Below are positions 27,541 through 46,825 of a stretch of 47,142 bases of DNA, piece by piece. The stretch is taken from assembly GCA_947589525.1 (NCBI GenBank), contig CANQAW010000001.1:1-47142 (forward strand), in the 5' to 3' direction. A program made the translations under genes and the position numbers. Position 1 is the first letter of the stretch. Every line of letters begins with the position of its first letter. A model generated the notes under the pieces. That model ran no database searches. It saw only the letters and a program-made list of their open reading frames with translations, and had not been told where the DNA came from. Origin of the DNA: Candidatus Gastranaerophilales bacterium. GTDB lineage: Bacteria > Cyanobacteriota > Vampirovibrionia > Gastranaerophilales > Gastranaerophilaceae.

Positions 27541-27572
27541 TGACACAGTAAAAAGCAAAATATATTTACCCC

Positions 27573-29552: not shown

Positions 29553-30256
29553 GCGAATTTTATTCAATTATTACAAAAAAAGGATTTAAACTTATAACTG
29601 AAGCGATAGCAAATGAAACAAAAATAAATCTTGAATATATTGCTGTTGGGGATTCTAACGGAGCCTATTACGAACCGAATGAGGAACAAACAACTCTTGT
29701 GAATGAAAAATATAGAGCAAGAATTTCCGAAGTAACGGAATTAGTTGCAAAGGCTCAAATACCCAATGACGTGGGCGGGTTTTATATACGAGAAATCGGT
29801 GTTTTAGATAATCAAAACAATTTAATTTTAATTGCAAAACAACCGGAAACATATAAGCCAATAATATCTCAGGGAAGTGCAAAGGAATTATGGATAAAAG
29901 TTATAATTCAGGCAATAAATTCAGAAGTATTGGAATTAAAGGTTGATACAAGTATTCAAACTGCAACTGTGGAATTAGTTGCAAATTTATTAAATTTGCA
30001 TACTCATAACGACCTGATGCCTGTTGCGATTTATGACACAAATTATAACGGCAGAGTTGATACTTGCGATTTTATAGACGGTGGAAAATTTGTCGGTGAT
30101 ATAAACACAAATCCTGATAACTCTATACTTGAAAGACTTGGAAGTTCTCAAAACGGAATTATTATCCCTGAAACAATCATGAACACAAATAAATACGATA
30201 AAAATAATAACGGCATTGTTGATGAGGCTGAAAACATAGATGCCGGTGAATTTTAA
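29549..30256 (+). CDS. tail fibre protein (tail-collar/DUF3751-type N-terminus) with two EF-hand/dockerin-like loops
   Basis: N-terminal ..IITKKGFKLITEAIANETKINLEYIAVGDSNG..LVNEKYRA..GGFYIREIGVLD. C-terminal repeats YDTNYNGRVDTCDFIDGGKF and YDKNNNGIVDEAENIDAGEF. Confidence 0.75.
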   Translation: MSEFYSIITKKGFKLITEAIANETKINLEYIAVGDSNGAYYEPNEEQTTLVNEKYRARISEVTELVAKAQIPNDVGGFYIREIGVLDNQNNLILIAKQPETYKPIISQGSAKELWIKVIIQAINSEVLELKVDTSIQTATVELVANLLNLHTHNDLMPVAIYDTNYNGRVDTCDFIDGGKFVGDINTNPDNSILERLGSSQNGIIIPETIMNTNKYDKNNNGIVDEAENIDAGEF

Positions 30257-30292
30257 TATGTACATTTACTAAACACGAAAGGAAAAACAAAA

Positions 30293-30976
30293 ATGGGCTC
30301 AATCCAACTCAAACGTGGTTTGTCTGCAAACCTACCTCAATCTGCGGCATTGGCAGAAATTCTTTACACAACCGATACAAAAAGAGTTTATGTCGGTAAC
30401 GGAGCAGGACAAGCATTAACCGAAATTTTAAGTTATGAAGAATTGCTTGAAACCTTAAACACATTATCTGAAATCGGTCATACTCACAATTCAAATGATA
30501 TTACTGATTTTGAAACTGCTGTTGAAGACTGTATTTCAACACAAAAGGGTGTTGCAGATGGACTAGCAACATTAGGTGCTAATGGTTTAATTCCAACATC
30601 TCAAATTCCTGCAAACTTTAAAGAAGCGGAAGTTGTACCAAATATTTTGGCTAGAAATGAATTATCTGCATTTACAGGATTACATGCACTTGTATTGGAT
30701 GCGAGTGATGATCCTACAGTTGAAACTGGTGGTGCTGAATATATTTACAATGGCACAACTTGGCTAAAAACATCTGAACTTAATGATTTAGATGCTATTA
30801 TAACTTGGGATAATGTAACAAATAAACCTTATTTTGTACAAAACATCTTGGATCTATCCGATACCCCATCATCTTTTCAAAATCAAGCAGGTAAAGTGCT
30901 TGTTGTAAACGATAATGAAACAGGGTTAGTTTTTACCAATGTTTACACAGGTAATGTTGACGGAGGAACTTTTTAA
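30293..30976 (+). CDS. tail fibre / receptor-binding protein with an Mtd_N/hyaluronidase-type N-terminal motif
   Basis: GSIQLKRGLSANLP..LAEILYTTDTKRVYVGNG; ends ..NVDGGTF. Confidence 0.6.
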   Translation: MGSIQLKRGLSANLPQSAALAEILYTTDTKRVYVGNGAGQALTEILSYEELLETLNTLSEIGHTHNSNDITDFETAVEDCISTQKGVADGLATLGANGLIPTSQIPANFKEAEVVPNILARNELSAFTGLHALVLDASDDPTVETGGAEYIYNGTTWLKTSELNDLDAIITWDNVTNKPYFVQNILDLSDTPSSFQNQAGKVLVVNDNETGLVFTNVYTGNVDGGTF

Positions 30977-31857
30977 TGACTGGAAGTTCTATTCAATTCA
31001 AACGAGGAAATAAAGCAGATTTGCCGAAATCTGCTCCCTCTGGTTCTCCTTTATGGTGTGAAGATACACAAGAACTTTATGTCGGAACTGAAAATGGAGT
31101 TTCCAAAATTGGAGCTGATGATGAAGCGTTAAACAAAAAAGTTTCCAAATCCGGCGATACAATGTCGGGAGATTTAAGTATTACCAAAGTTAATCCTATT
31201 TTATATTTGACAAATAATAACACAGCAAGCGGTTATGCCGGAATAAATATTCAAAACGGTATGTTCAAATATACTGACATTACCGCTCCCGAAGCAAATG
31301 TTTGTCTAAGTAGAATATTATTTCAAGATTCAGACGGTAATTCAACAGGTTGGTTGCAACAATATTTCAATACAAGTAATCAACTTGTAACAAATATTGG
31401 TGTTAGAAGAAATATTGGTTCGGCAAATAAAGATGCAGGAATAAATGTATTTGTAGGCTCTGACGGAACGGCATATACAACTGCCGTTACACCTGCCACT
31501 TCTGCAACAGGAACACATATTGCAACTTGCGGTTGGGTAAAAAGTATTTTAAGTAGTTCAGGTAACGGACTTTCAACTTTTTCAAAAGCCGGAAACGGAT
31601 ATATAAAGTTCAGTAGCGGAATTATACTCCAATGGGGTTCTTTTGCTTCAGGCGGATATAAATCGACAAAAACAATAACTTACCCTACGGCTTTTGGAAC
31701 AACAGCAAGAGTATTTTTTAGTTCAAATTACAAACAAACAAATGGAGATAAAGGTAGTAGTTGTAGCGTTACTGCTATAACAACAACAAATTTCACATAT
31801 TATTCAGGATTTGAACAGTCAAGTCCTACTGTTTATTGGTTTGCCGTTGGTTATTAA
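30976..31857 (+). CDS. tail fibre / receptor-binding protein, second copy of the same N-terminal motif
   Basis: SSIQFKRGNKADLP..LWCEDTQELYVGTENG. The C-terminal ..IILQWGS..ITYPTAFGT....TNF....WFAVGY tip domain resembles the gp53-like fibre tip. Confidence 0.6.
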   Translation: MTGSSIQFKRGNKADLPKSAPSGSPLWCEDTQELYVGTENGVSKIGADDEALNKKVSKSGDTMSGDLSITKVNPILYLTNNNTASGYAGINIQNGMFKYTDITAPEANVCLSRILFQDSDGNSTGWLQQYFNTSNQLVTNIGVRRNIGSANKDAGINVFVGSDGTAYTTAVTPATSATGTHIATCGWVKSILSSSGNGLSTFSKAGNGYIKFSSGIILQWGSFASGGYKSTKTITYPTAFGTTARVFFSSNYKQTNGDKGSSCSVTAITTTNFTYYSGFEQSSPTVYWFAVGY

Positions 31858-31867
31858 GGAGTTTTAT

Positions 31868-32338
31868 ATGAATGAAGAATTTTATGTAGGTCAAATTTTT
31901 GAGGGTGAATATCCCATTGAAGTTTCAGATTGGTGTACTGAAAGCGATAAATACAGTATTGAAGAAATAGACGAAAAAGACGGTAAAAGACGATTCCAAA
32001 TAAAAGAAATTCCGTCATTAACCCCACAGGAAAAAGAACAACAGTTTTTGGAAGACTTCTTTTATATACCTCAAATAGGATATTTCAGAAAAATACCAAA
32101 AGGCTACAACGGATTAGTTGAGGCTATGAATACAACATTTAACTTAGTTTCGTCATTAGGATATTTGCCTGAAAATACTTTGCAATTTTACAGAATACCT
32201 GATTTTACCAATGAGGATCAATGTAGCGAAGAATGGTTAATTGCTAATTCTTTCAAAAATTCGCAAATGACAAAAGAGGATTTTAATAACCTCTACATAA
32301 ATTGTATGACTGCTTGGAACAAGCAAGAACATTTATAA
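31868..32338 (+). CDS. hypothetical protein (possible fibre assembly/accessory protein)
   Basis: The start is moved to the ATG at 31868, after AAGGAG. 156 aa, acidic. The call is by position only. Confidence 0.4.
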   Translation: MNEEFYVGQIFEGEYPIEVSDWCTESDKYSIEEIDEKDGKRRFQIKEIPSLTPQEKEQQFLEDFFYIPQIGYFRKIPKGYNGLVEAMNTTFNLVSSLGYLPENTLQFYRIPDFTNEDQCSEEWLIANSFKNSQMTKEDFNNLYINCMTAWNKQEHL

Positions 32339-32352
32339 AGAAAGGAATTATA

Positions 32353-32862
32353 ATGACATCACTAACTAAAATCTGTCTGCATTGGACAGCAGGAACAAAT
32401 AGTCCAAATTCAACTGATTTAGAACATTATCACTTTTTATTTGATAAAGACGGCAAAGAATACAAAGGCACTTATACCCCACAAGATAATATTAACTGTT
32501 ATGACGGAAAATACGCAGCACATTGCGGTGGTGGGAACACAGGATGCATCGGAGTTTCTTGTTGTGGGATGTATGGTTTTAATTTAAAAGATAAAAAAAC
32601 AAAATATCCTCTCACTCAAAAACAAGTGGAGGCAATGTGTTCCAAAGTTGCAAAGCTATGCAGTTTATATGGAATCACAGTTTCAGAAAAAACTGTTTTT
32701 ACACATTATGAATTCGGTCAATCTCATCCTAAAACTTCAAGTTATGGAAAAATTGATTTCACATATCTTCCGTATTTGCCAAATCTATCAAAAGAGAGAA
32801 TTGGCGATTATTTAAGGAACAAGATTCAATGGTATCAAATTCAACAAAAGAAAGGAAAATAA
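32353..32862 (+). CDS. N-acetylmuramoyl-L-alanine amidase-type endolysin
   Basis: The start is moved to the ATG at 32353. ..ICLHWTAG..HYHFLFDKDG..AAHCGGGNTGCIGVSCCGM.. fits the amidase_2/PGRP pattern. Confidence 0.65.
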   Translation: MTSLTKICLHWTAGTNSPNSTDLEHYHFLFDKDGKEYKGTYTPQDNINCYDGKYAAHCGGGNTGCIGVSCCGMYGFNLKDKKTKYPLTQKQVEAMCSKVAKLCSLYGITVSEKTVFTHYEFGQSHPKTSSYGKIDFTYLPYLPNLSKERIGDYLRNKIQWYQIQQKKGK

Positions 32863-32863
32863 T

Positions 32864-33154
32864 ATGAGTATTTTATCATTTATCAAAAATTGGAAAGACT
32901 TCAGCACTATTTGGGCTATAATTCAACCATTTATTCTAAAACTGATTAAAAAGAAAGTTCCGACAACGATTACAAAACTGTACGAAAATCTTGCAAAATA
33001 CACACAGCCTGCGATTGATAGCTTGTTTAAATTAAAAGGAAAAATCCAAAACTCTCCGAACGAACTTGACGATTATTGTTTTAATCAAGGCGTTAATGCG
33101 ATTGAATCATTTGCAAATTATTTGCTAGAAACAGTTAAGACATTAAGAGCATAA
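32864..33154 (+). CDS. hypothetical protein
   Basis: 96 aa after the endolysin. No clear transmembrane helix, so not called a holin. Confidence 0.4.
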   Translation: MSILSFIKNWKDFSTIWAIIQPFILKLIKKKVPTTITKLYENLAKYTQPAIDSLFKLKGKIQNSPNELDDYCFNQGVNAIESFANYLLETVKTLRA

Positions 33155-33163
33155 GGAGTTTAT

Positions 33164-33784
33164 ATGTATTGGAAAGATATGCTGAATGTGCAAAATGTTG
33201 AAAAAGGTTTTTTCTCCTCCTCTAATCCCTATGGTATCCCTGATTTAAAACCGGATGAGTTTCCCATAAAGGAACTCATCCCCTACAGGGTTGATAAAAA
33301 CAGGAACGGAACGGCACACTTCTTTTTAGATGATTATCGTTTTGAGAGATGTTGGAAAAACGCAGACTCACAGCTTGCAGTTTTAAAACAATACGATGGA
33401 GTGTTATCTCCTGATTTTTCGATGTACACGAATTACCCCGAAGCTTTCCAAATTTGGCAAGTTTATAGGAACAGATGGTGTGCAAGATATTGGCAAGAAA
33501 ACGGAATAAAAGTTATTCCGACAGTCAGTTGGTCCGATGAATCAAGCTACAAATATGCCTTTTTAGGAATTCCAAAACATTCTGTTGTTGCAATTGGAAC
33601 AGTTGGTGTTTTGAATGATAAAAACGCTATAACTCTCTTTATACAAGGCTTTAAAGAAATGTTAAAACAACTTGAACCAAAAGAAATTTTGATTTATGGA
33701 AACAAACTGAGCGAACTTGACGGATATAAAAACCTCCGTTGGTTCGAACCGTACATGAATAAATTTAAGAAAGCGAGGTCATAA
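33164..33784 (+). CDS. DUF4417-like protein
   Basis: ..AHFFLDDYRFERCW..LSPDFSMYTNYP...QIWQVYRNRWCARYWQENGIKVIPTVSW.. matches my memory of the DUF4417 family. Function unknown. Confidence 0.55.
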   Translation: MYWKDMLNVQNVEKGFFSSSNPYGIPDLKPDEFPIKELIPYRVDKNRNGTAHFFLDDYRFERCWKNADSQLAVLKQYDGVLSPDFSMYTNYPEAFQIWQVYRNRWCARYWQENGIKVIPTVSWSDESSYKYAFLGIPKHSVVAIGTVGVLNDKNAITLFIQGFKEMLKQLEPKEILIYGNKLSELDGYKNLRWFEPYMNKFKKARS

Positions 33785-34251
33785 TGGGTGGTCGAGGTTC
33801 AGGTGGTGGCAAAGGTTCAAAAACTTCTTCAAGTAGTGCTCCAATTTCAAAAGGCGAAAAAATCTACCGAGAAAAGGTTTTAAAAAATTCTTACATAGGA
33901 ATGAATGAGTTTAAAGAAGTTAAAGAATACTTAAAAAATAATGCCTCAAAAGAAGAAATTTTAAAAGTTGCAAATCATTATGGAGAACTTTATAAAAATA
34001 AATTTGATATTTCAGGCGATACTGCTGCAATGTATAAAACCTATGAGAATTCTTTAAACACGTTGGCAGTACAAAAAGGAGGTTTTAAAAAAGCTGAAAA
34101 AATAAAATATATTAACGAAAAAGGTGGTTCTAATATTGACGTATCTGACAGTTATTCAAGTAAAGAAATTGATAAAATGTTCAAGCAAGTTGTTAAAGGT
34201 AAAAAGATGAAGAAAATTGGCTACGAATGGGTAGTTGATTATAACAGTTAA
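33784..34251 (+). CDS. hypothetical protein, MGGRGSGGG-headed, copy 1
   Basis: 155 aa. N-terminal MGGRGSGGGKGSKTSSSS, then a Lys-rich helical-looking body. Coupled to the DUF4417 gene by ATAATG. Confidence 0.6.
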   Translation: MGGRGSGGGKGSKTSSSSAPISKGEKIYREKVLKNSYIGMNEFKEVKEYLKNNASKEEILKVANHYGELYKNKFDISGDTAAMYKTYENSLNTLAVQKGGFKKAEKIKYINEKGGSNIDVSDSYSSKEIDKMFKQVVKGKKMKKIGYEWVVDYNS

Positions 34252-34266
34252 GAAAGTGAGGTAATC

Positions 34267-34914
34267 ATGGGTGGTCGTGGTTCAGGTGGTGGTAGAAGCG
34301 GAAAAGCATCTGCCGGTGGTGGAACAATGAAAAAAGATGAATTGATAAATTTATACAATAACATTTCAGGAAATCCGTCATACACGGTTGAAGAGAGAGT
34401 TCGTGCAATGTCATCAATAAAAAAAGAAATTGATAATATTGATGCCAAAGAAAAACCAAAAGAAAAAACAACTCAAGAAAAGAGACTGGAAGCTCTTGCT
34501 AAAGCTCGTGCAAAACGTGCAGAAAACAAAAAGAATGGAATAAAACCCGAAAAGAAAGAAAAAGACCCAAGAAGAACAAAAGCTAAAATGTCTATGGATA
34601 GCACAGTTTCAGACCTTAAATATAATTTGAGGCGAGGAGTTGAATCAGACGGATATATTTCAAATTCTGATTTCAGAGTTGAAGATTACGGAAATTCCGT
34701 CAGCGTTCAAATCAGATATTTAGGGAAGTGGAAAAATCCATCACATGCACGCTATGAGGAAGATTACGATTGGCAGGAACTTCGTTCTTCAAGTGGCAAA
34801 CAGATTGATAAAGTAATAAAGAAAATGTCAAAACAATCAGGCAGAAAAATCACTTGGAGTACAAGCGAAAAGAATTGGATTGATATTGATATTCCAAAAA
34901 TGAAAGGAGACTAA
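34267..34914 (+). CDS. hypothetical protein, MGGRGSGGG-headed, copy 2
   Basis: 215 aa. N-terminal MGGRGSGGGRSGKASAGGG, a highly basic middle (KEKPKEKTTQEKR..KRAENKK) and a distinct C-terminal domain. Confidence 0.6.
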   Translation: MGGRGSGGGRSGKASAGGGTMKKDELINLYNNISGNPSYTVEERVRAMSSIKKEIDNIDAKEKPKEKTTQEKRLEALAKARAKRAENKKNGIKPEKKEKDPRRTKAKMSMDSTVSDLKYNLRRGVESDGYISNSDFRVEDYGNSVSVQIRYLGKWKNPSHARYEEDYDWQELRSSSGKQIDKVIKKMSKQSGRKITWSTSEKNWIDIDIPKMKGD

Positions 34915-34917
34915 TTT

Positions 34918-35514
34918 ATGGGAGGTCGTGGTTCAGGTGGCGGTAAAAGTAGTGGTGGAGGTGGTGCATCTTCTACACCACCAAGATTAGTGAGTGTAAA
35001 TGATTATTATAAAGAAAAATACTCACAAATGAACGATTTGGAATTAAATCGTGCATACGTTAATGCACAAAATTTGATGAAAAAGGAACAAGCAAAAGTT
35101 TTATACGAACAGGAAAAACTTTCAAAAATGATGGAAGAATTTAAAGCATTACCTGCAAATCATCCTGAAGTAAATAAAAAATGGGATGCGATTGATAAAC
35201 AAATGTCAGTATTAAATGATGCTCGTTCAAAATCAAATATTCGTTCACAGGCATATCTATTGGCAGTCAATGAAAAATACAATATCAGAGCAAAATACAA
35301 CTCAAACGATATGAAAAGTATGACTAACGGACAGTTAAACTCTTTTTACAATAAATCATATAAAGAGAGCAGTAAGGCTCGGCAAAAAATCGAAAAAACC
35401 TCCAATCCTAAAACAAAAGCAAAATATCAGAAAATATATGATCAGCATAATAAAAACTTCTTTGCCGCAAACAATGAACGCAACAATCGTGGACTTGATG
35501 GAAAAGATTGGTAA
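34918..35514 (+). CDS. hypothetical protein, MGGRGSGGG-headed, copy 3
   Basis: 198 aa. N-terminal MGGRGSGGGKSSGGGGASS, with a body unrelated by eye to copies 1 and 2. Confidence 0.6.
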   Translation: MGGRGSGGGKSSGGGGASSTPPRLVSVNDYYKEKYSQMNDLELNRAYVNAQNLMKKEQAKVLYEQEKLSKMMEEFKALPANHPEVNKKWDAIDKQMSVLNDARSKSNIRSQAYLLAVNEKYNIRAKYNSNDMKSMTNGQLNSFYNKSYKESSKARQKIEKTSNPKTKAKYQKIYDQHNKNFFAANNERNNRGLDGKDW

Positions 35515-35608
35515 TTGTGTCTGAATGATACGAAATAATCGAAATAGACTTTAAATTCAGCAATAGTCGAGTGATGAATATGACTGTACTTAATTAAAGG
35601 AGGTCAGT
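35515..35608 (+). repeat. intergenic element R copy 1
   Basis: Starts 1 nt after the stop: TTGTGTCTGAATGATACGAAATAATCGAAATAGAC..CAATAGTCGAG... Shares its 5' block with copies 2 and 3. Confidence 0.8.
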
Positions 35609-36427
35609 ATGACAACAATTACACCCGAAGAAGCATTAAAAAGTAAGAAAAACTTTGAAGAGTTTATGACTGATTATTATCCGCCAATTGTAACTTCAAC
35701 ATTAGCAAGTTATCCAAAAGCTGATGGACAAACCGTTGTATCCATTTGTGATTTAACACAGAAAATGGAAACAATGGTTTCGCTCTTGAATGAAATTGAG
35801 AGTTTAAATCTAAATAAAGCTCCGTTTATCGTTTGGTATGTAACTTCAGAGAAAGAAGAATTGGTAACGGCAGCAAAAGCATTAAATCATTTTTCGATTA
35901 AAGGCATTAAAATATTTATTTTTAAAGCCTTTTTGAATGGCGATAAAATGGGCTTTGAATGCCTTTTGAAACCCGAATTAAATGATAAAAAAACTTATAC
36001 AAGAAATGAAAATACCCCTGCGAAAATATTTCAAAAAGAATATTGGGAAAAATATTTCGAGATTTGTGATGAATTACAAAGCGAAATGCAAGTTAATCCA
36101 AAGCCACAACATTTTCAATATTTGCCTATGGGTAAGCGTGGGGTTCAAATAATGCAAACCGTAAATACCAAATTAGGATATGTCGCAACAGAAATTTTTA
36201 TCAATAACGATCAGACAATTTTTGAGAAATTATTGGAACATAAAGTTGAAATTGAAGAGGAACTTGGATTTTTAGAATGGCAACCGATAGAAGATAAGAA
36301 ATCCTCACGCATAAGAAAAACACTCGGAGTAGATATTTTAAAAGAAGGAAATATTGAAAGAGCTGTTAAACTCCAAATCCAAACGGCAGAAGATTTTAAG
36401 AAAGTATTTTCAAAGTATTTAGTATAG
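35609..36427 (+). CDS. hypothetical protein with a DUF4268-like C-terminal half
   Basis: 272 aa. The C-terminal ..YWEKYFEICDEL..QYLPMGKRGV..ATEIFINNDQTIFEKLLEHKVEIEEELGF.LEWQP...KKSSRI resembles DUF4268 from memory. The N-terminal half is not recognised. Confidence 0.4.
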   Translation: MTTITPEEALKSKKNFEEFMTDYYPPIVTSTLASYPKADGQTVVSICDLTQKMETMVSLLNEIESLNLNKAPFIVWYVTSEKEELVTAAKALNHFSIKGIKIFIFKAFLNGDKMGFECLLKPELNDKKTYTRNENTPAKIFQKEYWEKYFEICDELQSEMQVNPKPQHFQYLPMGKRGVQIMQTVNTKLGYVATEIFINNDQTIFEKLLEHKVEIEEELGFLEWQPIEDKKSSRIRKTLGVDILKEGNIERAVKLQIQTAEDFKKVFSKYLV

Positions 36428-36441
36428 AAAAGGCGGTAAAA

Positions 36442-36645
36442 ATGAGAAATATACAATTTTTAAAAGATTTATATCCGGCAGGAACAAGAGTGAAATTAGT
36501 TGAAATGAATGACATACAAGCACCGCCTATCGGGACTTTGGGAACTGTAATGTACGTTGATGACATCGGAACTATTCACATTAAATGGGATAACGGTTCA
36601 ACCCTTGGAGCAGCATATCCCGAAGACAGGGTAACAAAGATTTAA
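36442..36645 (+). CDS. DUF4314-like small protein
   Basis: 67 aa. ..GTRVKLVEMNDIQAPPIGTLGTVMYVDDIGTIHIKWDNGSTLG.. matches my memory of DUF4314. Confidence 0.55.
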   Translation: MRNIQFLKDLYPAGTRVKLVEMNDIQAPPIGTLGTVMYVDDIGTIHIKWDNGSTLGAAYPEDRVTKI

Positions 36646-36745
36646 ATTGTGTCGGAATGATACGAAATAGGTGCAATAGACTTGAATAGTCGCTGCACCT
36701 ATTCGATTAATGTGAATGCTAGTAAGACCAAGAAAGGACAACATT
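36646..36745 (+). repeat. intergenic element R copy 2
   Basis: ATTGTGTCGGAATGATACGAAATAGG.., a 10-bp stem at 36666-36675/36694-36703 with an 18-nt loop, then GATTAATGTGAATGC. Confidence 0.85.
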
Positions 36746-36970
36746 ATGGGCATTTATTTAGAAGAAAAAGAAGAAAAAAATTATCAAGCATTTATGGATG
36801 AATTAGAAAAAATTTCTAAAAAGTATGGCATAGCTTTTGAAGGCTGTGGAGTGTTTGCATTCAGCGATGAAAACGGTTTCAAAAGCATCAAATACCGTAA
36901 GGATTCTTCAAGCGGAGACTTGAGAATCGATGAATTAGTATTTAGTGATGGCACAAAAGCTGACAGATAA
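36746..36970 (+). CDS. hypothetical small protein (74 aa)
   Basis: The start is moved to the ATG at 36746, after GAAAGGA. MGIYLEEKEEKNYQAFMDELEKISKKYGIAFEG... Confidence 0.45.
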   Translation: MGIYLEEKEEKNYQAFMDELEKISKKYGIAFEGCGVFAFSDENGFKSIKYRKDSSSGDLRIDELVFSDGTKADR

Positions 36971-36982
36971 GGAGATATAAAT

Positions 36983-37321
36983 ATGGCAACAACAAAAACA
37001 AAAACAGAAAAAATTATAGAAGATATAACTTACGCATCAAGCAATCAATCAATTTCAAGACGTGTAATTTATGAATTTAAAAATTTAAAAGTTATGTTGG
37101 AACTAAAATCGGATAGTTACAGAGGACAATGTTATGCAAGAGCATCAGTTCTTGATAACTTGGAATGGCGTGTTATTTATTTTATTCCACATGCAGAAAT
37201 GAGAACTCCGGAAGGACTTTGTCATTATCTTCCATACAGAGACACTAAAGCTCCAAATGCAAAAAAAGAATTCGACAAAGATATCGAGCGTTTAAAAAAG
37301 TATATTTCAGAACTTCTTTAA
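36983..37321 (+). CDS. hypothetical protein (112 aa)
   Basis: An ORF with an RBS-like GGAGA upstream. No family recognised. Confidence 0.45.
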   Translation: MATTKTKTEKIIEDITYASSNQSISRRVIYEFKNLKVMLELKSDSYRGQCYARASVLDNLEWRVIYFIPHAEMRTPEGLCHYLPYRDTKAPNAKKEFDKDIERLKKYISELL

Positions 37322-37416
37322 TGTGTCGAAATGATACTGAATAGTCTTTAATCACTTGAATTAATGACTATTCAGAGGCATTAATGTCAATGTAAATAAA
37401 CGAAAGGCGGCATATT
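37322..37416 (+). repeat. intergenic element R copy 3
   Basis: TGTGTCGAAATGATACTGAATAGTC.., a 10-bp stem at 37337-37346/37366-37375 with a 19-nt loop, then CATTAATGTCAATGT. Confidence 0.85.
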
Positions 37417-37722
37417 ATGACAGTAGAAAATTTAAAAGATTTTGACAGAACATTATTTGGAACAAAGATTGTAAACTTCAATACTCAAAAACTAGGTTTA
37501 ATCCTTTATACTTGGACAAACGTTTATGCCGATGCACATATCCCGTTTGCAACATGTGTTGATGAAAATGGCAAAAAATATAATGTATCAATGGATGACA
37601 TCAGAGCAATTGAAGATTTAGATGAAGACGAACTTCAAGAATTAGGCTTAAGGTATAAGGAGATAAACTATGAAATTAAAAATTATATTTCAAAAAGACA
37701 AATATATTGTTGGAATTACTGA
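37417..37722 (+). CDS. hypothetical protein (101 aa)
   Basis: An ORF after GAAAGGCGG. Its 3' end overlaps the next small ORF, so the true stop region is uncertain. Confidence 0.4.
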   Translation: MTVENLKDFDRTLFGTKIVNFNTQKLGLILYTWTNVYADAHIPFATCVDENGKKYNVSMDDIRAIEDLDEDELQELGLRYKEINYEIKNYISKRQIYCWNY

Positions 37723-37840
37723 AGATGGAAAATTATTCGAATCATACGGAAACACATATACAAGAAATATCCTTGGAGCAGCAGGGTTGTATATTCAAGA
37801 ATTACAAGCAGAAATTGCAAAACTGAAAGGTAAAAATTAA
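37670..37840 (+). CDS. small ORF (56 aa)
   Basis: Below the track cutoff. AAGGAG lies 6 nt before the ATG. MKLKIIFQKDKYIVGITEDGKLFESYGNTYTRNILGAAGLYIQELQAEIAKLKGKN*. Confidence 0.4.
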   Translation: MKLKIIFQKDKYIVGITEDGKLFESYGNTYTRNILGAAGLYIQELQAEIAKLKGKN

Positions 37841-37842
37841 TT

Positions 37843-37989
37843 ATGAAAGTCGAAGAGTTAATTAAACAATTAAAAAAATGCAATCCCGATGCGGATGTTG
37901 AAGTTATCGATATTGAAGGCAATTACAGCTGTGATTTATTACAAGTTGAAGATAACGAAGACAGAGTATATTTTTATGTAGAGTTATAA
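37843..37989 (+). CDS. small ORF (48 aa)
   Basis: Below the track cutoff. MKVEELIKQLKKCNPDADVEVIDIEGNYSCDLLQVEDNEDRVYFYVEL*. The start lies 2 nt after the previous stop. Confidence 0.4.
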   Translation: MKVEELIKQLKKCNPDADVEVIDIEGNYSCDLLQVEDNEDRVYFYVEL

Positions 37990-37994
37990 AAAAA

Positions 37995-38024
37995 GCTCTA
38001 ATGCAAATCAACAAACATTAGAGC
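37995..38024 (-). terminator. rho-independent terminator of the early (mor-ending) transcript, at the convergence point
   Basis: GCTCTAATG-12 nt-CATTAGAGC. On the minus strand it is followed by T7 (the complement of A7 at 37988-37994). It lies 30 nt downstream of the mor-like stop. Confidence 0.6.
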
Positions 38025-38053
38025 AAAGAAGTGATGAATATTTTACATTTCGA

Positions 38054-38362
38054 CTATTTAGGGAGTGGAGGTTTTTTGGCTTTTCTTAATTCTTTTCTTA
38101 TCACTGCCTCAACGTGTCTTTGAGACAATTCGCATTCAATAACTAAGCGATTTAAGGTCATTTTTGTGCCGTCATATTCTTTTATAATGTAACGCTCTTT
38201 TATCTTTTTTAATGCGTGTTTTGGAATATTTACTATCAATCCCGGTAAACAAAAAATTAAGGTCAAAGCGGTTTTAATCCCTGCACATTGTGCAACGAAT
38301 TTTAAGTCATCGTTTGGCATATCTTCAATTGTAATATTTTCCATCCATGGCTTAAATTCCAT
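38054..38362 (-). CDS. Mor/C-family transcription activator
   Basis: 102 aa. ..GIKTALTLIFCLPGLIVNIPK....IKERYIIKEYDGTKMTLNRLVIECELSQRHVEAVIRK fits the Mor family layout with its C-terminal HTH. Confidence 0.65.
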   Translation of the reverse strand: MEFKPWMENITIEDMPNDDLKFVAQCAGIKTALTLIFCLPGLIVNIPKHALKKIKERYIIKEYDGTKMTLNRLVIECELSQRHVEAVIRKELRKAKKPPLPK

Positions 38363-38452
38363 AGCTCTCCTCTTGTTATTTATACGGTCTCGTCAGTTGG
38401 AGCCTTACTCCAAGACGGTCAGCTTGCACTGTTAGCCGACCGTTTCGACCTG

Positions 38453-38764
38453 TTAGCCTGCCATTGCCATTGTTGGCATTGGAGTAAGCATAGATTCAAA
38501 GTCTTGTCGCAATTTAGAAAGAATTGCGATTTGTCCCTCAATTACCTTGCAAGCAATTTCTCTTTCCTTTGCCATACTCCAGTTGTCTTTATCCAGAGTC
38601 GCATCAGCAAACTTCAATTTTGCATCATAGAGTTGGTTCGTAAGGTTATCTGACATGTTGTTAATTAGTGTCATAATTGCACATTCTTTCGGTTCTTCAG
38701 GGGCGATTTCCCCGAAGAATTGCTTGCTTACCATTTTTGAATTGTCATTTTTTTCTGAATTCAT
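38453..38764 (-). CDS. hypothetical early protein
   Basis: 103 aa. No family recognised. Confidence 0.4.
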   Translation of the reverse strand: MNSEKNDNSKMVSKQFFGEIAPEEPKECAIMTLINNMSDNLTNQLYDAKLKFADATLDKDNWSMAKEREIACKVIEGQIAILSKLRQDFESMLTPMPTMAMAG

Positions 38765-38791
38765 TTTTTTCTCCTTCTATTTTTCTACTAC

Positions 38792-39244
38792 TCAAAGTGT
38801 GGCCGCACTCTTCTTTATTTTTAAATTCTTTTTTATAGCCTGTAGAGCCTGAATAACCTTACAGGCTTTGGCTTTAGTTAGGAACATAACGTCATCAACT
38901 TTAAACTTGGATTTTAAAAACTTTCTAAGGGATTTTTTTGCAAACTCGTCATTGTCGTGATAACAAATCTCACGCCATATACCTTCAATCATTCGAAGTT
39001 GTGCATCGCTTGCCATATTATCGCTACGATGTAAAGTTTCATATTTTTTTAAGCGTTTTTCCCAACGGTTTATAGCAACAGCTTTTTCTTCCAAGATTTC
39101 AATAAAAATAATCGCTTCTGTATAGGTTAAATTTTTAGAAGTCTGAACATCAAAAGATTTAAGCATTTCACGATATAAATCGTCATTTAGTCCAAGAGCA
39201 TTTTTTAATGTATGGATTTTTCTAATTTGAGAAGTCGTAGCCAT
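38792..39244 (-). CDS. Mu gp16/GemA-like (DUF1018-type) protein
   Basis: ..QIRKIHTLKNALGLNDDLYREML..FDV.TSKNLTYTEA..FIE.L......ASDAQLRMIEGIW.....LRKFL...F.V.D..FLT...A.KVIQAL fits the family pattern. Confidence 0.75.
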   Translation of the reverse strand: MATTSQIRKIHTLKNALGLNDDLYREMLKSFDVQTSKNLTYTEAIIFIEILEEKAVAINRWEKRLKKYETLHRSDNMASDAQLRMIEGIWREICYHDNDEFAKKSLRKFLKSKFKVDDVMFLTKAKACKVIQALQAIKKNLKIKKSAATL

Positions 39245-39395
39245 ATTCGATTTTTATATCCTCAAGTTGAAGTTCTCTACCATGTTTTATTCCGATTTGC
39301 ACTCCCAAGATAAAGATGGCAAGGGCGATTAAAAAAATATATAATGCGGTAGAGTCGGGTCGGAATAAAAACTTACCGAAGTATCTATTTCTCAT
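39222..39395 (-). CDS. small membrane ORF (57 aa)
   Basis: Below the track cutoff; hand-translated as MRNRYFGKFLFRPDSTALYIFLIALAIFILGVQIGIKHGRELQLEDIKIEYGYDFSN*. GAAGG lies 8 nt upstream. It fills the gap between the MuB-like and GemA-like genes. Confidence 0.4.
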   Translation of the reverse strand: MRNRYFGKFLFRPDSTALYIFLIALAIFILGVQIGIKHGRELQLEDIKIEYGYDFSN

Positions 39396-39408
39396 AATTT
39401 AACCTTCA

Positions 39409-40293
39409 CTACACCATCAATAACTTAGAAGTATGTTTAATCACAGCATTATCGACCTCAGCTTTGCCATTGAATTTGGCAATGCTAATACTGTGAGAAA
39501 TAAGATGTTCCAATCTTCTTGTATTACCACCTGAATACTGAAGATAGGTTTCAGCCAGTTCGGTATTTTGCTCAATGGTTTCAAGGATTTTTATTACATC
39601 CTGAATGAGCAAGCTATCAATTATTTTCGTGTATTTTACTCTTGAATACAGTTGGTCATATTGGTTGTTATAACCTTTTAGGTTTTCAAGTAAAATACCT
39701 CTTCCGATTAACAGGACACCAACGCCTGTTTTATCGTGAATTCTTCTAGTAATTTCTAATGCTCGGTACGGAAGATTTTCGGCTTCGTCAATAATTAAAA
39801 GTCTTCCTGATTGATTTAACTTTCTTACGACTTCGCCCATCAAATCATATACAGAGCCTTTACCTGAAAGTCCGAGCCTCCTGTGTATTTCCTTTAAAAG
39901 AGATTTTGCCGTATAGCCTGAATCACTTTCAATTAATATTGAATCCAAGAATTCCTGAGTGTATTTTTTTACGGCAACGGTTTTTCCCAAGCCGGCACGA
40001 CCTACACAAACTCCGATTTTACCTTGCGTATGGCATAAACGAGCTATTTCGGAAATGTATTTTACGATAGATATATTTACGAACGGCAAATCGTTTTCTA
40101 CGGCACGTTCACGTTCCCTTTGAATAAAATTATTTATTGCATCGGTAACTTTGTCATTCTTACCGTTATAAGTACCGTTTAACCACATACTAATTGTAGA
40201 TTTTGCAAGTCCTGTTGCAGTTGAAATATATGCGGTACTATAACTATTCTTTTCCATTAAATCTCGAAGTTCGGCTCTAATATCCATACGCAA
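39409..40293 (-). CDS. MuB-like AAA+ transposition ATPase
   Basis: N-terminal HTH (..ISTATGLAKSTISMWLNG..), Walker A GRAGLGKT, Walker B LLIIDEAE. Overlaps the transposase stop. Confidence 0.8.
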   Translation of the reverse strand: MRMDIRAELRDLMEKNSYSTAYISTATGLAKSTISMWLNGTYNGKNDKVTDAINNFIQRERERAVENDLPFVNISIVKYISEIARLCHTQGKIGVCVGRAGLGKTVAVKKYTQEFLDSILIESDSGYTAKSLLKEIHRRLGLSGKGSVYDLMGEVVRKLNQSGRLLIIDEAENLPYRALEITRRIHDKTGVGVLLIGRGILLENLKGYNNQYDQLYSRVKYTKIIDSLLIQDVIKILETIEQNTELAETYLQYSGGNTRRLEHLISHSISIAKFNGKAEVDNAVIKHTSKLLMV

Positions 40294-42298
40294 CTCCTTT
40301 TTCAGCTAAATTGTTATTTGAAAGGGCATACTTTTTCTTCATATTTATTCCCTCTTCCTCAAGGATTTTGTCTGTTTCAAATAAATAAAGCGTTTCCTCA
40401 TATTGAGGGTTTTTATCAAGAAAAATAGACAAATCCTGTCTGCCAAATGCTTCCATTTCTTTATTTTTGCGAATTGCCTCATCCATTTTGGTATTGGCAA
40501 TTATGGAAACATTTGTTTTCTCTTTTGGTTTTGAATCCTTTATTACGGAAGAATATGCGACCTTATAATTGTCACAGATTTCTTCAAGACCGATTTCACG
40601 ATTTTGTTTTATGTATGATTTTGCTACGTTCAAATGGCGTTTTTTAGCTGCCATTGCTTCCTTAAATTCTTCTTTTGATATTTCATTTGCGTGTAATGCA
40701 GCCACAGCCTTAACTGCCGTAACTTTACCGACAAATTCCTCGTTATCAGCCCTGAACACCCAAGCCTCTTTATAATTTTGGACATCTCTGCGGAGATAAA
40801 CCTTTAATCCCGTTTTTGACATCATCCAATCTGCCCAGTAAGTAATACCGAATTCGCTGTCTTTGATGCCGTTTCTTCCGATAGTAAAGTTCTTTGATGT
40901 TCTCATACAGAACAGTTTTAATGCATCACGTGAGGTTGTAATCTTACCTTCAAATTCCATATCAAATAATTCATCAGGGGATAAGCCTTGCAGGTTTTTA
41001 CCTCGTGATGGTTTTTTATTTAAAATATTGATAACGAAATCATCAAAGATAGTCTTAAACTTTTCAAATGGAATTATTTTTCCGGCTTTTATTTCTTTTG
41101 CAAGTTTCTCTGGTCTTTCGACAACATTGCCGCCACGATAACCAACAGAATGTTTTGAGATTAATTCTTTAATTTTCAAGAAGTCTCTTTCTATTGGTTT
41201 AGTCTGTGCATTATACGGTAATGCAAAATGCACTTGAACATTTAACTCATCAAGCATAGATGTTGTTCTTGACTTGTTCGTGTCTATTTTTATAACCTGT
41301 CTGCCTCCGGCAAAATCTTTACAACGATAATCTTTACCGTTATCAATAATTACATCTTCAGGTAAACCAAAGGCTTCTGCTGCGTAGTAGAATGCCTGAA
41401 ATATTCTGTCAGAATTCGGACTACCGCAAGCTAAAAGCCAACCGAGCCATTTGCCTGATTTGTAATCTCGCCAAGCCGTAACCCAAGGAAATACGACATT
41501 GCCATCCGGTCCAAGACAAGCTACATCAATTTGAGCGTGGTCTGATACCCATACTTTGCCGGATATAATATTTGAATAATCTCTGTCAACATAGCATCCA
41601 TATTTACGATTCCATGCACTTTGTCCCTTGCGTGCTAAATATACACTTTGTTTTGGAATCATTTTGTCTAATTTTCTTTTAAATGATGTATGGCTTGGAA
41701 ATGATTCTCTACTACAACCAAAATTTTTGATTGCATATCCAAGTGTTAATTCCCAACAACTTAATAATGATGGCGAACCTTCAACTAAATACAAGCTCTT
41801 AAAATAATCAAATAATTCATCCGATACGGTTGATTTATCTGCCCTTGAACCATATCTTGCTAATAACCCTTCAATACCATCACTTTTGTATCGTTTACGC
41901 ATTTTAATTACAGAAGGATACGAGGTTTTATATTCAGGATTTTGGACATTCCAGTTTAATATAAATCGTTCAAGAGCATTTCCCTTTAGATATTTTGATT
42001 CTTTGATTATTCTTATATATTTATCAGCTTGCAGTTTAGCCCATTCAGGTGCATTGGTATAACTTTCAGATTCTATAATTTTGTCTTGAGATATATTCTG
42101 TTCTTTTAATTCTTCAGGTAATGAATCGACATGAATGTAGTAAGTAAGACGTTTCCCAATTTTAATAATTTTATGGATATATTCTCCGCATCGACAACGG
42201 TCTTTCAATGTTTTAGGCTTGATTAATAAAATGTTGCAAGCCTCATCTTCTGAAAGCCATTCTTTTGAGTTGTTAATAATAGGATTATAGTTCAGCAT
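40277..42298 (-). CDS. MuA-type DDE transposase
   Basis: 673 aa. N-terminal HTH region and a DDE core: VWVSDHAQIDV .. VIIDNGKDY .. YNAQTKPIERDF. Confidence 0.85.
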   Translation of the reverse strand: MLNYNPIINNSKEWLSEDEACNILLIKPKTLKDRCRCGEYIHKIIKIGKRLTYYIHVDSLPEELKEQNISQDKIIESESYTNAPEWAKLQADKYIRIIKESKYLKGNALERFILNWNVQNPEYKTSYPSVIKMRKRYKSDGIEGLLARYGSRADKSTVSDELFDYFKSLYLVEGSPSLLSCWELTLGYAIKNFGCSRESFPSHTSFKRKLDKMIPKQSVYLARKGQSAWNRKYGCYVDRDYSNIISGKVWVSDHAQIDVACLGPDGNVVFPWVTAWRDYKSGKWLGWLLACGSPNSDRIFQAFYYAAEAFGLPEDVIIDNGKDYRCKDFAGGRQVIKIDTNKSRTTSMLDELNVQVHFALPYNAQTKPIERDFLKIKELISKHSVGYRGGNVVERPEKLAKEIKAGKIIPFEKFKTIFDDFVINILNKKPSRGKNLQGLSPDELFDMEFEGKITTSRDALKLFCMRTSKNFTIGRNGIKDSEFGITYWADWMMSKTGLKVYLRRDVQNYKEAWVFRADNEEFVGKVTAVKAVAALHANEISKEEFKEAMAAKKRHLNVAKSYIKQNREIGLEEICDNYKVAYSSVIKDSKPKEKTNVSIIANTKMDEAIRKNKEMEAFGRQDLSIFLDKNPQYEETLYLFETDKILEEEGINMKKKYALSNNNLAEKGVAYGY

Positions 42299-42518
42299 CT
42301 ATTACTTCGTAGTCCTTTATTTTAATACCCAACAAACGTTCTATGACAAAAATATCAATTTCCAGTCTGTTTTTCTCACCCGTAAAGTGTCTGCTTACAA
42401 TGCTTTTAGATAGATGTAATTCGTTTTCAATTTCTCTTGACCTAAGATTAATTACAGCAATGATTGTTTTGATAACGAATTGTTTTTTGCATAAATTACA
42501 AATTTCCATAATACTCAA
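42285..42518 (-). CDS. Ner/Cro-like small HTH regulator
   Basis: 77 aa directly upstream of and overlapping the transposase. HTH ..LRSREIENELHLSKSIVSRHFTGEK... Confidence 0.5.
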   Translation of the reverse strand: MSIMEICNLCKKQFVIKTIIAVINLRSREIENELHLSKSIVSRHFTGEKNRLEIDIFVIERLLGIKIKDYEVIDAEL

Positions 42519-42695
42519 TTCCTCTCTTGTATATAGTTAAGCGACCTATATTCAAGTAATGGTTTTTATTTGAAATATTTGAACCAGATGTTTGATTGAT
42601 TTTTTGCACAGCAGAATTTCCCCCTGTAAAAGAGGTATTTTCGGGTGTAAAAACATCTACCTGATTATCTTAATTATATTAAATGCAAGAGTATT

Positions 42696-42719
42696 TAAAA
42701 GCCTTGTGCAAAGTGCTTT
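42696..42719 (-). repeat. repeat B copy 3 (inverted)
   Basis: The reverse complement reads AAAGCACTTTGCACAAGGCTTTTA, a 21/24 ungapped match to 8895-8918. Confidence 0.8.
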
Positions 42720-42720
42720 T

Positions 42721-42732
42721 GAGAATATTCTC
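42721..42732. promoter_or_regulatory. perfect 12-bp palindrome GAGAATATTCTC
   Basis: Self-complementary sequence abutting repeat B copy 3, in the gene-free 326-bp spacer between the two transposition modules. Confidence 0.4.
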
Positions 42733-42844
42733 ACAGCAAATGCACTAATATCGTTTTTTAAATTTTGCAAAAAACATTATTTTTTTATGTCGATATTAAC
42801 TAAAAAGGGATTTAAAAAATTAGGGAAAAGTTTATTAAGAAATA

Positions 42845-43528
42845 TTAAGAAATTAGATTGTTTTTTAAATCAGAATACAATTCCTCGAAACTTTTTTCTC
42901 TTCGCCAAAGACTTTCTGCCAATCTTTGATACAAATAAACTTCATTCTGATTATGACTTTCAATTCTTGCAAGATAGCAATACATCTTTTTGAATTCTTG
43001 CTCTTCTTCCTGTGTAAAATTATTCTCTCGCTTTGCTTGGAGCGGTTTCTTTGTTACAAAAATTTTGTTATTGTAGTTATAGAAATACGCATATTTCTCA
43101 AAAAACTTTCTGAACCTGAATTTTTGTGGATTTTTACAGTAATGGTTAACTAACTCATTTAATTGTCTTTCATAAATCAAATTCCGAAATATCTTGTAAA
43201 AATCCGCAATGCAATTATCCCCGACACCCGTTAAATATGAAACTTTTATTGTTGGTAATTCTGCACAAAAACTTCTCATTATTAAATCAACAGTTTCGGG
43301 AGAATGATACATGAACATCAGTTTTAAATTTTTAGATTCAATTCCGTTTTTAGTTGGTAATTCTTCTATCGCAGAATAAATTCCGTCTTTTTCTTGAATT
43401 TTATTTTCGTTGATTAAAAATAGTAAAATCACTTCTAAAACAGAAGGTTCAATATCCATCAATTGTGTAATATCGTTAAGCGTACAGTTTTTCAATCTTT
43501 TGCACAGTTTTAAAATTCTGTCTTTCAT
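42845..43528 (-). CDS. hypothetical protein, N-terminal winged-helix-like; third gene of the second transposition module
   Basis: 227 aa. The N-terminus ..LNDITQLMDIEPSVLEVILLFLINENKI.. looks wHTH-like. The C-terminal ..FKKMYCYLARIESHNQNEVYLYQRLAESLWRRE.. loosely recalls the C-termini of IS1595-type proteins, but no DDE core was seen. Confidence 0.35.
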   Translation of the reverse strand: MKDRILKLCKRLKNCTLNDITQLMDIEPSVLEVILLFLINENKIQEKDGIYSAIEELPTKNGIESKNLKLMFMYHSPETVDLIMRSFCAELPTIKVSYLTGVGDNCIADFYKIFRNLIYERQLNELVNHYCKNPQKFRFRKFFEKYAYFYNYNNKIFVTKKPLQAKRENNFTQEEEQEFKKMYCYLARIESHNQNEVYLYQRLAESLWRREKSFEELYSDLKNNLIS

Positions 43529-44207: not shown

Positions 44208-44210
44208 AAT

Positions 44211-46220: not shown

Positions 46221-46298
46221 GGTACAAACACCTTACCTCTGAAGTGGAAGAATTTGAACACCACTTCCGACCTTTGTGTCTGTTTTGTATCAATGAAA

Positions 46299-46324: not shown

Positions 46325-46348
46325 AAATTTTTTCTCTCTCATATTGAA

Positions 46349-46774: not shown

Positions 46775-46825
46775 TATCAACATGGCGTAAACTTCTGCTA
46801 TAATTGATTTTGAAAGCAATTTTAA

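Follow-up and report, generated by a model that had tools for sequence, protein, structure and literature searches.

Repeated intergenic elements, most likely promoters, divide a variable accessory region of Mu-like Gastranaerophilales prophages into gene cassettes

The window analyzed here, a stretch of 47,142 nucleotides from the assembly GCA_947589525.1 of a Candidatus Gastranaerophilales bacterium (contig CANQAW010000001.1, positions 1 to 47,142), carries a Mu-like prophage in which three copies of an intergenic element stand between groups of small accessory genes. An initial annotation had placed these copies directly after stop codons at 35515-35608, 36646-36745 and 37322-37416, and every coordinate and sequence word that it gave for them is present; it had further proposed that they split the accessory genes into cassettes, and that conserved position and structure argue for a function. 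We find that the element is real and widespread and that the cassette idea holds, that the structural argument fails, and that the most likely function is that of a promoter. The three copies and the cassettes that follow them are as follows, with block A denoting the conserved block at the 5' end of each copy, SD a Shine-Dalgarno sequence, and +1 a start site predicted from the sequence.

35515-35608 (+): element copy 1, filling the gap between the preceding stop codon (which ends at 35514) and the ATG at 35609
35516-35537 (+): block A of copy 1
35550-35555 (+): -35-like TTTAAA of copy 1
35573-35579 (+): -10-like heptamer GATGAAT of copy 1
35586 (+): predicted +1 of copy 1, a G
35597-35603 (+): SD AAGGAGG of copy 1, before the ATG at 35609
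35609-36645 (+): cassette 1, a DUF4268 protein (35609-36427) and a DUF4314 protein (36442-36645)
36646-36745 (+): element copy 2, between a stop codon ending at 36645 and the ATG at 36746
36648-36669 (+): block A of copy 2
36682-36687 (+): -35-like TTGAAT of copy 2, in the loop of the 10-bp inverted repeat AATAGGTGCA/TGCACCTATT
36705-36711 (+): heptamer GATTAAT of copy 2
36718 (+): predicted +1 of copy 2, a G
36734-36738 (+): SD AAGGA of copy 2, before the ATG at 36746
36746-37321 (+): cassette 2, two small unknown proteins (36746-36970 and 36983-37321)
37322-37416 (+): element copy 3, between a stop codon ending at 37321 and the ATG at 37417
37322-37343 (+): block A of copy 3
37356-37361 (+): -35-like TTGAAT of copy 3, enclosed by the inverted repeat CTGAATAGTC/GACTATTCAG
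37379-37385 (+): heptamer CATTAAT of copy 3
37392 (+): predicted +1 of copy 3, a G
37404-37410 (+): SD AAGGCGG of copy 3, before the ATG at 37417
37417-37989 (+): cassette 3, the last, with small open reading frames (ORFs) at 37417-37722, 37670-37840 and 37843-37989

The hexamer TGTGTC, with which block A opens, begins 1, 2 and 0 nt past the preceding stop codon in copies 1, 2 and 3, respectively. With up to 3 mismatches the opening 22-mer TGTGTCNNAATGATACNNAATA has three sites in the 47 kb, all of them at the three elements; shuffled controls held a mean of 0.06 matches, and none of 100 shuffles reached three. Mean column identity across the three aligned copies is 74%, the distance from the -35-like hexamer to the heptamer is 17 nt in each, and the shared ending ATTAATGT(G/C)AATG, reported earlier for copies 2 and 3, is confirmed there. 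Past the last cassette, window positions 37990-38050 hold a hairpin (GCTCTAATG...CATTAGAGC, at about 37995-38025, where the array converges on a Mor-like gene of the minus strand) and then AGTGATGAATAT; this sequence matches the heptamer region of copy 1 exactly and may be the remnant 3' half of another element at the end of the array.

The family extends far beyond this window. Exact scans for the 22-mer covered IMG/VR and, with one genome per species, GTDB (185,579 species), and yielded 17 stretches and 60 loci, respectively; an nhmmer sequence profile built from the copies then recovered 146 copies in 68 public loci (cited below by our own locus numbers, L001 and so on). Nearly all copies belong to clusters of 2 to 7 on one strand, at intervals of 306-1806 bp (median 939), which occupy one and the same accessory region of Mu-like phages or prophages, and all carriers examined have the Mu-like gene set. 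Synteny is kept on the upstream side (amidase, DUF4417 protein, glycine-rich paralogues) and on the downstream, convergent side (Mor-like protein, GemA, MuB and MuA, with a second transposase module in many loci). The named carriers are mostly metagenome-assembled genomes (MAGs) of Candidatus Gastranaerophilales or Melainabacteria; a few are labelled otherwise, which may reflect the binning of phage contigs. Copies confirmed by the profile are present in 50 of the 60 GTDB loci, nearly all in prophage arrays, the other contexts being one conserved locus in four MAGs and two transposase promoters, and the remaining 10 loci have the bare 22-mer only, chance matches in unrelated taxa. Because the copies lie nearly all in prophage arrays across these 185,579 species genomes, the concern raised by the initial annotation that the motif might be a genome-wide host repeat of the repetitive extragenic palindromic type is ruled out. 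A blastn search (word size 11) of window positions 33000-38000 against 50,697 GenBank phage records returned no match.

The one conserved locus outside the arrays places an element homologue between ordinary host genes in four rumen MAGs (L031:5556-5612, minus strand; L038:1280-1338; L040:5232-5288, adjoining a dihydroorotate-dehydrogenase-like gene; L062:1514-1570, minus strand). Its layout comprises block A, TTG(T/A)AA-N17-TAAATT, a conserved stretch of about 45 nt with a short hairpin whose stem differs between MAGs, and TGTATCAGGGATTTTGAC repeats, a repeat not found in the window; this homologue could be a small RNA gene or a mobile-element relic. Separately, a Gastranaerophilales contig (L049:4241-7629) holds a diverged array of seven weaker copies, with profile scores of 17-44, in which the heptamer is followed by TCCGGTGTA instead of GTnnnTGTA, apparently a sub-family.

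Alignment of 96 unique copies, the set used for all statistics of conservation, folding and covariation, reveals a rigid scaffold, promoter-like and about 75 bp long. The invariant upstream block is TGTGTCnnAATGATACnnAATA, and block A can be written TGTGTC-yr-AATGATAC-rr-AATA; by alignment column the scaffold reads:

columns 6-11: TGTGTC, near invariant
columns 12-13: y r, variable
columns 14-21: AATGATAC, near invariant
columns 22-23: r r, variable
columns 24-27: AATA, conserved
columns 28-32: five free positions
columns 33-40: AATGACTT, with T39 and T40 invariant
columns 41-45: GAAAT, CCAAT or TAAAT, semi-conserved
columns 46-52: seven free positions
columns 53-61: ATTCAGAGT, semi-conserved
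columns 62-70: GAT(T/G)AATGT, with A63, T64, A66, A67 and T68 each kept in 95 or 96 of the 96 copies
columns 71-73: three free positions
columns 74-77: TGTA, with T74 in 96/96 and a purine at column 75 in 96/96

Beyond column 77 come a leader rich in A, the SD and the ATG. Columns 39-44 thereby present a -35-like word (TTGAAA, TTCCAA or TTTAAA), the heptamer stands 17 nt further on, and a pyrimidine-purine step lies 6 nt past the last T of the heptamer. Of 89 copies, 87 place the heptamer 57 or 58 nt from TGTGTC, and most copies have their ATG 32-41 nt past the heptamer. An upstream ORF could be assigned for 68 copies, and in 53 of these its stop codon ends 0-4 nt ahead of TGTGTC. Free sequence held at fixed length between conserved words argues for a DNA site read by proteins and not for an RNA fold. 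Compared by eye, block A fits none of the CRP/FNR, NtcA, LexA, IHF, sigma-28, sigma-54 or K-turn words known to us.

Gene content between the elements varies while the elements persist. The left flank of the arrays is conserved, a DUF4268 family (f1) following the first element in most arrays (39 of the scored elements), and another small protein family tends to follow the last. Between successive elements there are 33 distinct gene sets of 1-4 genes each, the protein families directly flanking the elements number 22 downstream and 21 upstream, and whole units of an element plus its genes are present in one array and absent from a similar one, for example in L072, L029 and L048; the position of cassette 2 of the window is occupied by other gene sets in related phages. 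The division of the accessory genes into cassettes, proposed from three copies, is thus borne out in related phages, and the repetition of the element across 68 loci, kept while the intervening genes change, agrees with the earlier view of conserved, functional units.

Where the mosaic joints can be placed, most fall inside the elements, in or at their conserved blocks. In pairs of copies that share the upstream flank and differ downstream (n=22), similarity ends at positions 15-29, just after block A, in 15 pairs, at 35-39 in 3, at 55 in 1, and at 65-69, after the heptamer, in 3. In pairs with different upstream and the same downstream flanks (n=27), the joint falls on the 5' edge of block A (positions 0-9) in 11 and at 25-50 in 5. 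There is also a case in which the central segment has been exchanged by itself (L017:4710 versus L003:6504).

The strongest indication of what the element does comes from the transposase genes of the same phages. The initial annotation had noticed that the octamer TGTGTCTG recurs at 46275-46282 beside the second transposase gene and had called the link weak. It proves to be real: 46223-46294 on the minus strand is a diverged copy of the scaffold, and the octamer lies, on the opposite strand, within the block A counterpart GATACAAAACAGACACA. An analogy with Mu ends, drawn from the TGT with which the elements begin, found no support.

46218-46294 (-): diverged fourth copy, the promoter region of the second transposase (nhmmer match 46294-46223 with all filters off, E 0.0097)
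46291-46275 (-): GATACAAAACAGACACA, with the words of block A rearranged
46259-46252 (-): -35-like GTTCAAAT, flanked by GAAGTGG/CCACTTC
46235-46230 (-): -10 word TAAGGT, followed by ACC and the ATG at 46220, with no SD
44211-46220 (-): second transposase gene

Matches to the profile in L070 and L041 (E 8e-12 and 3e-6) lie between a divergent 91-aa helix-turn-helix (HTH) gene and a MuA-like transposase ORF that is 45-47% identical (tblastn) to the second transposase of the window; in L070 block A is central in the divergent control region, beside a TGTGTACACA palindrome. Further relatives of the second transposase were fetched and their upstream regions read, giving eleven AT-rich loci, 10 of which have GTTCCAAT or GTTCAAAT, a spacer, GAG(T/G) and a -10 word. 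In some the -10 word is a canonical TAnnnT (TAAGGT, TAATGT, TAAAGT, TATCGT), in others a heptamer of the array type (GATTAAT in L088, GATAGAT in L041 and L085, GATGAAT in L070). These correspondences identify the array element as a paralogue of the transposase promoter, whether by shared ancestry or by descent from it.

The same loci bear on the start site. With no SD before it, the transposase ATG lies 0-1 nt past the predicted +1 in L041 (where it is at the predicted +1 itself), L082, L083, L085 and L088, and 3 nt past it in L070, L078, L079, L080, L096 and the window; the exception, L086, which shares a contig with L003, has a normal leader with an SD. Because there is no room for a ribosome-binding site (RBS) before these start codons, the transcript would have to begin at or next to the ATG, and the transposase mRNAs of the family are probably leaderless or nearly so. 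This geometry would put the start site of the element at column 75 and make columns 62-68 its -10 region.

The explanation that we favor, and consider fairly likely, is that the elements are promoter cassettes resembling the promoter-early stem-loop (PeSL) modules of T4-type phages, that is, a promoter with an upstream protein-binding block that serves also as a homology patch for gene exchange. Each element would give the next 1-4 accessory genes their own transcription start. Block A (-69 to -48) would be the putative protein-binding block, for which a host factor, a repressor or the N-terminal domain of the transposase are possible binders; AATGAC and the -35-like TTGAAA, TTCCAA or TTTAAA would occupy about -42 to -31; a spacer free in sequence but fixed at 17 nt would lead to the -10-like GAT(T/G)AAT; the invariant pyrimidine-purine step 6 nt past the heptamer is taken as -1/+1; and a leader of 20-30 nt with an SD would separate +1 from the ATG. 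Because the scaffold is paralogous to the promoter of the transposase operon, host RNA polymerase would be expected to read it and to switch on the accessory genes in the early programme, which would add to any read-through from the upstream tail and lysis operon. The inverted repeats found in about 45% of copies would be optional and variable in position, and may attenuate read-through or modulate the promoter, as in PeSLs; alternatively, they could be by-products. The repeated element would at the same time be the patch of homology at which related phages exchange, gain and lose accessory genes.

Several points weigh against this explanation. Promoter activity and the start site are predictions from sequence, and a scan for the sigma-70 consensus, which may not be the consensus of the Gastranaerophilales polymerase, called no promoter inside the elements. 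The scan is silent because the heptamer is non-canonical when read as a hexamer, offering no A at -11 (ATTAAT) or no T at -7 (GATTAA); its invariant A and T are one position further apart than in TAnnnT, and it may function as a bulged -10, through GATTAA and a discriminator of 7 nt, or with help. The initial annotation had likewise found no convincing -35/-10 pair, which is correct for the sigma-70 consensus, but it set aside the promoter, the reading now best supported. The only canonical promoter seen is TTGCTA-N17-TATAAT upstream of an HU-like gene. In other transposase promoters the words of block A are rearranged (GATAC...GACACA), and the repressor-like HTH protein of L070 and L041 has no detectable homologue in the window and weak, HTH-level matches in other loci. 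The 96 unique copies are phylogenetically related, and counts over them overstate independence. The gene families derive from our own calling and clustering of ORFs around every array, and the breakpoints from pairwise ungapped comparison of copies from different loci; of the 27 pairs that differ upstream, 4 join at 90-99, past the conserved blocks, and 7 could not be placed.

A more far-reaching version of the promoter explanation, unlikely in our estimation, holds that block A and the 7-nt -10 form a control or capture system in which one phage protein (candidates being the transposase N-terminal domain, a repressor and the HU-like protein) binds all cassette promoters together with the transposase promoter. 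If this were true, accessory expression, and possibly cassette recombination, would be coupled to transposition and the early programme, and the arrays would be an integron-like platform of promoter-carrying cassettes in transposable phages of a poorly known phylum.

Somewhat less credible is that the elements are middle or late promoters of the Mu Mor/C type, whose non-canonical -10 needs the Mor-like protein (38054-38362) and whose cassettes would be expressed late. The Mor-family gene directly adjoins the array, in synteny in most related loci, and the -10-like word is defective by sigma-70 rules. Yet the scaffold, heptamer included, drives the transposase in L041, L070, L085 and L088, where it would be needed before any Mor-like protein exists; there is no conserved dyad centred near -43.5; and in L001, L003 and L046 the DNA that was fetched has the array beside a transposase module and contains no Mor-like gene. 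It speaks further against the late-promoter reading that no trace of the element is found in the main divergent late control region (19835-20041), and that the stretch upstream of the MuA-type module (42519-42850) shows no similarity to the element either.

We regard as improbable the proposal that the elements are site-specific, integron-like recombination sites at which a phage recombinase or transposase excises and inserts units of element plus genes. Same-orientation repeats bounding units of 1-4 genes, combinatorial content, the presence or absence of whole units, the placement of most breakpoints inside elements, and a 22-bp invariant block with no assigned binder all speak for it. A site-specific recombinase, however, predicts a single crossover point, and the joints are instead spread over the 5' edge, the end of block A, the middle of the element, the end of the heptamer and, in a few cases, positions further downstream, which points to homologous recombination on short identities. 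Integron attC sites resemble the elements in being same-orientation repeats of about 60-140 bp that separate the small genes of a variable array, but they follow promoterless genes, consist of imperfect inverted repeats with cores (RYYYAAC ... GTTRRRY) and need IntI, whereas the repeats here precede their genes, carry promoter and RBS signals and have no terminal symmetry: no attC core is present, and the element ends (TGTGTC..., ...GATTAATGTnnnTGTA) are not complementary. Neither an IntI-type tyrosine recombinase nor a serine recombinase is among the annotated neighbouring ORFs, a scan that did not cover every ORF of the window and the loci. Recombination sites would, moreover, leave the promoter geometry and its linkage to RBS and ATG unexplained.

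More doubtful still is a structured RNA signal in a long late transcript, be it a processing site, an antiterminator, or an element of translation or stability. The elements do share the sense strand of a long operon, beginning directly past stop codons, and the 10-bp stems that the initial annotation described in copies 2 and 3 do fold (z scores of -3.4 for AATAGGTGCA/TGCACCTATT and -4.6 for CTGAATAGTC/GACTATTCAG), each followed by CGATTAATG or AGAGGCATT; copy 1 has no comparable stem (z -1.2). The 5' block, too, can form a 6-bp hairpin, UGUGUC/GAUACR, with one G-U pair. Across the 96 unique copies, however, RNAalifold yields a single weak helix, in that invariant block (-0.6 kcal/mol), no helix that covaries coherently emerges when all pairs of columns are scanned, and the rare changes of GATAC to GATTC are uncompensated. 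In the central part 53 of the 96 copies (55%), window copy 1 among them, have no strong hairpin (z above -2), and in the 43 that do (z below -2) the register differs: the hairpin encloses the -35 in 32, overlaps it with the 3' arm in 9, and falls within the spacer or across the -10 in 2. Mean fold energies are alike on both strands (-9.6 versus -9.4 kcal/mol), the variable segments conserve length and not pairing, and homologues stand in divergent promoter regions, where no gene precedes them on their own strand.

Because the stems are absent or differently placed across the family, the covariation and shared relative position noted for copies 2 and 3 are confined to those two copies and reflect two unrelated inverted repeats, and the argument for function that was built on structure fails with them. 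Since there was no consensus structure, we built no covariance model and relied on the sequence profile instead. A fixed single dyad operator was rejected, the centres of the inverted repeats ranging from column 33 to column 54. Rfam gave no match to the whole window at gathering scores and, at E up to 10, only chance snoRNA-like matches for the element region and the host-locus homologue. The earlier statement that the stems are not classic terminators stands: a scan of 32000-39000 called no site with a stem plus a T run inside any of the three elements, and the intrinsic terminator reading was rejected on the absence of T runs after the stems.

Least probable of all is an array of binding sites with no promoter function (operators for a repressor or transposase, or enhancer-like or nucleoid-protein sites, with the -35 and -10 words a relic of the transposase control region), for although block A is the most conserved part, stands amid the divergent control region of L070 beside the TGTGTACACA palindrome, and occurs in a phage that encodes an HU-like protein, pure binding sites would not maintain a -35-like word, heptamer and -1/+1 step as strongly conserved as block A, a rigid spacing between block A and these words, and a same-strand SD and ATG behind every copy, at 32-41 nt in most.

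The closest parallel to the promoter cassettes proposed here is the PeSL, the mobile regulatory cassette of T4-type phages (Arbiol et al. 2010, PMC2839356; Comeau et al. 2014, PMC4122927). PeSLs run from the upstream stop codon through -35 and -10 boxes to an SD and start codon, while their stem-loops lie between, over, upstream or downstream of the boxes and define five subclasses; they are concentrated in hyperplastic regions and mediate the insertion, deletion and replacement of ORFans by recombination, including by way of mini-circles (PMC2839356). The elements described here are likewise repeated intergenic modules that reach from the upstream stop to the SD and start codon and have -35-like and -10-like boxes, the position of their stem-loops varies relative to the boxes, and they occupy a hyperplastic region of small unknown genes with the joints between related phages inside the modules. 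There is no sequence homology between the two, and the differences are several. The carrier here is a temperate, transposable, Mu-like myovirus of Melainabacteria, whereas PeSLs belong to lytic T4-like phages of Proteobacteria; the predicted promoter is not of the sigma-70 consensus, having the heptamer GAT(T/G)AAT; an invariant 22-bp block lies about 50-70 bp upstream where PeSLs have an AT-rich tract; the stem-loops are AT-rich, without G/C tracts, and missing in over half of the copies; and the module is a paralogue of the phage transposase promoter. Finally, promoter and terminator activity and mini-circles have been demonstrated experimentally for PeSLs (PMC2839356, PMC4122927), whereas the promoter activity of the present elements is a prediction.

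Morons, anti-CRISPR promoter/Aca modules and attC sites share only single features with the elements. Morons are genes with their own promoter and terminator inserted between conserved genes of temperate phages (as quoted in PMC4378225), and the cassettes resemble them in that extra genes of unknown function occupy a set position, the end of a late operon, and that every group appears to have a promoter to itself. Morons, however, have as a rule been acquired independently of one another and bring unrelated control signals along with terminators of their own, while here one predicted promoter module is reused 2-7 times in tandem with no terminator-like site after each unit. Anti-CRISPR operons of Mu-like Pseudomonas phages and of other mobile elements (for example, PMC9410906, PMC8633003) offer a conserved promoter before variable small genes at a fixed locus, inverted repeats that overlap the promoter, and rapid early expression as the proposed logic, but they end with a gene for a cognate HTH repressor (aca) that binds defined inverted repeats; no HTH gene was found in the cassettes of the window, and the inverted repeats of the elements are neither conserved nor fixed in position.

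With respect to phage Mu itself, the element of L070 and L041 lies between a divergent repressor-like gene and the transposase, in the place of the early promoter Pe and its operators. The early control region of Mu comprises Pe, operators O1-O3 and an IHF site; it is single-copy and is not reused before accessory genes, whereas the element is reused here and the transposase mRNAs are apparently leaderless or nearly so. Candidates for operators or host-factor sites are, by this likeness, block A and the TGTGT words near it.

To our knowledge, mobile regulatory cassettes have been worked out only for lytic T4-like phages, Melainabacteria have no cultured phage system, and no promoter has so far been defined in the Gastranaerophilales. 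The present family would extend the principle of the mobile regulatory cassette to temperate transposable phages of gut Melainabacteria, with the same design (stop codon, promoter, optional movable stem-loop, RBS, ATG) arising independently. The 22-mer and the heptamer at fixed spacing are a handle for locating the variable accessory locus in metagenomes, and searches for anti-defence or host-takeover genes could naturally begin at that locus. The elements supply candidate promoter parts and predicted start sites for Gastranaerophilales, along with two testable oddities: a -10-like heptamer with a wider spacing of its A and T, and apparently leaderless transposase mRNAs.

The remaining genes of the prophage that bear on the array are the following.

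9241-19834 (-): head and sheath block, including sheath, capsid and a Mu-I-like protease
20042 to 32862 (+): terminase, tape measure, baseplate, tail fibres and amidase
38054-38362 (-): Mor-family activator (phrog_836, E 3e-9; Pfam Mor E 0.058, below the cut-off)
38792-39244 (-): GemA
39409-40293 (-): AAA+ MuB-like protein
40277-42298 (-): MuA-type transposase
42285-42518 (-): small HTH protein, 77 aa
42845-46621 (-): second transposase module, with the HU-like gene, the transposase with a Mu C-terminal domain, a TniB-like ATPase and a 227-aa protein
46349-46621 (-): HU-like gene

After the amidase the gene order runs through a DUF4417 protein and three paralogues with MGGRGSGGG N-termini to the array. 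These three successive paralogues (33784-35514; 155, 215 and 198 aa) have a near-identical MGGRGSGG(G/K) start and preceding ribosome-binding region; one of the three is matched by phrog_38558, no Pfam domain is recognised in any of them, and the last always lies directly before the first element in relatives.

Two transposition modules stand in tandem in the prophage, 42845-46621 and 38054-42518, both on the minus strand. Because the same tandem layout recurs in L008, L009, L022, L026, L035, L063 and L077, the second transposase belongs to the phage family and is not a separate insertion; in L001, L003 and L046 only the first module adjoins the array. Just outside the HU-like gene, positions 46742-46960 hold three direct copies of a repeat of about 31 nt (core AAAATAATCATACTAACCGTAA, plus strand) at spacings of 75 and 113 nt, which are likely to be transposase-binding sites at the end of the prophage. 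They lie beside an apparent tRNA 3' end (47108-47142, minus strand), where ARAGORN calls no tRNA, the gene being cut by the window edge.

In the tail-fibre region, a protein at 30293-30976 has an Mtd_N (major tropism determinant N-terminal) domain, as in the targets of diversity-generating retroelements. Relative to Mu, the terminase-tail-lysis block (plus strand, 20042-37989) is inverted with respect to the head and sheath block (minus strand, 9241-19834); the two late blocks diverge from a 200-bp AT-rich region at 19835-20041, and the accessory array thus converges on the early operon.

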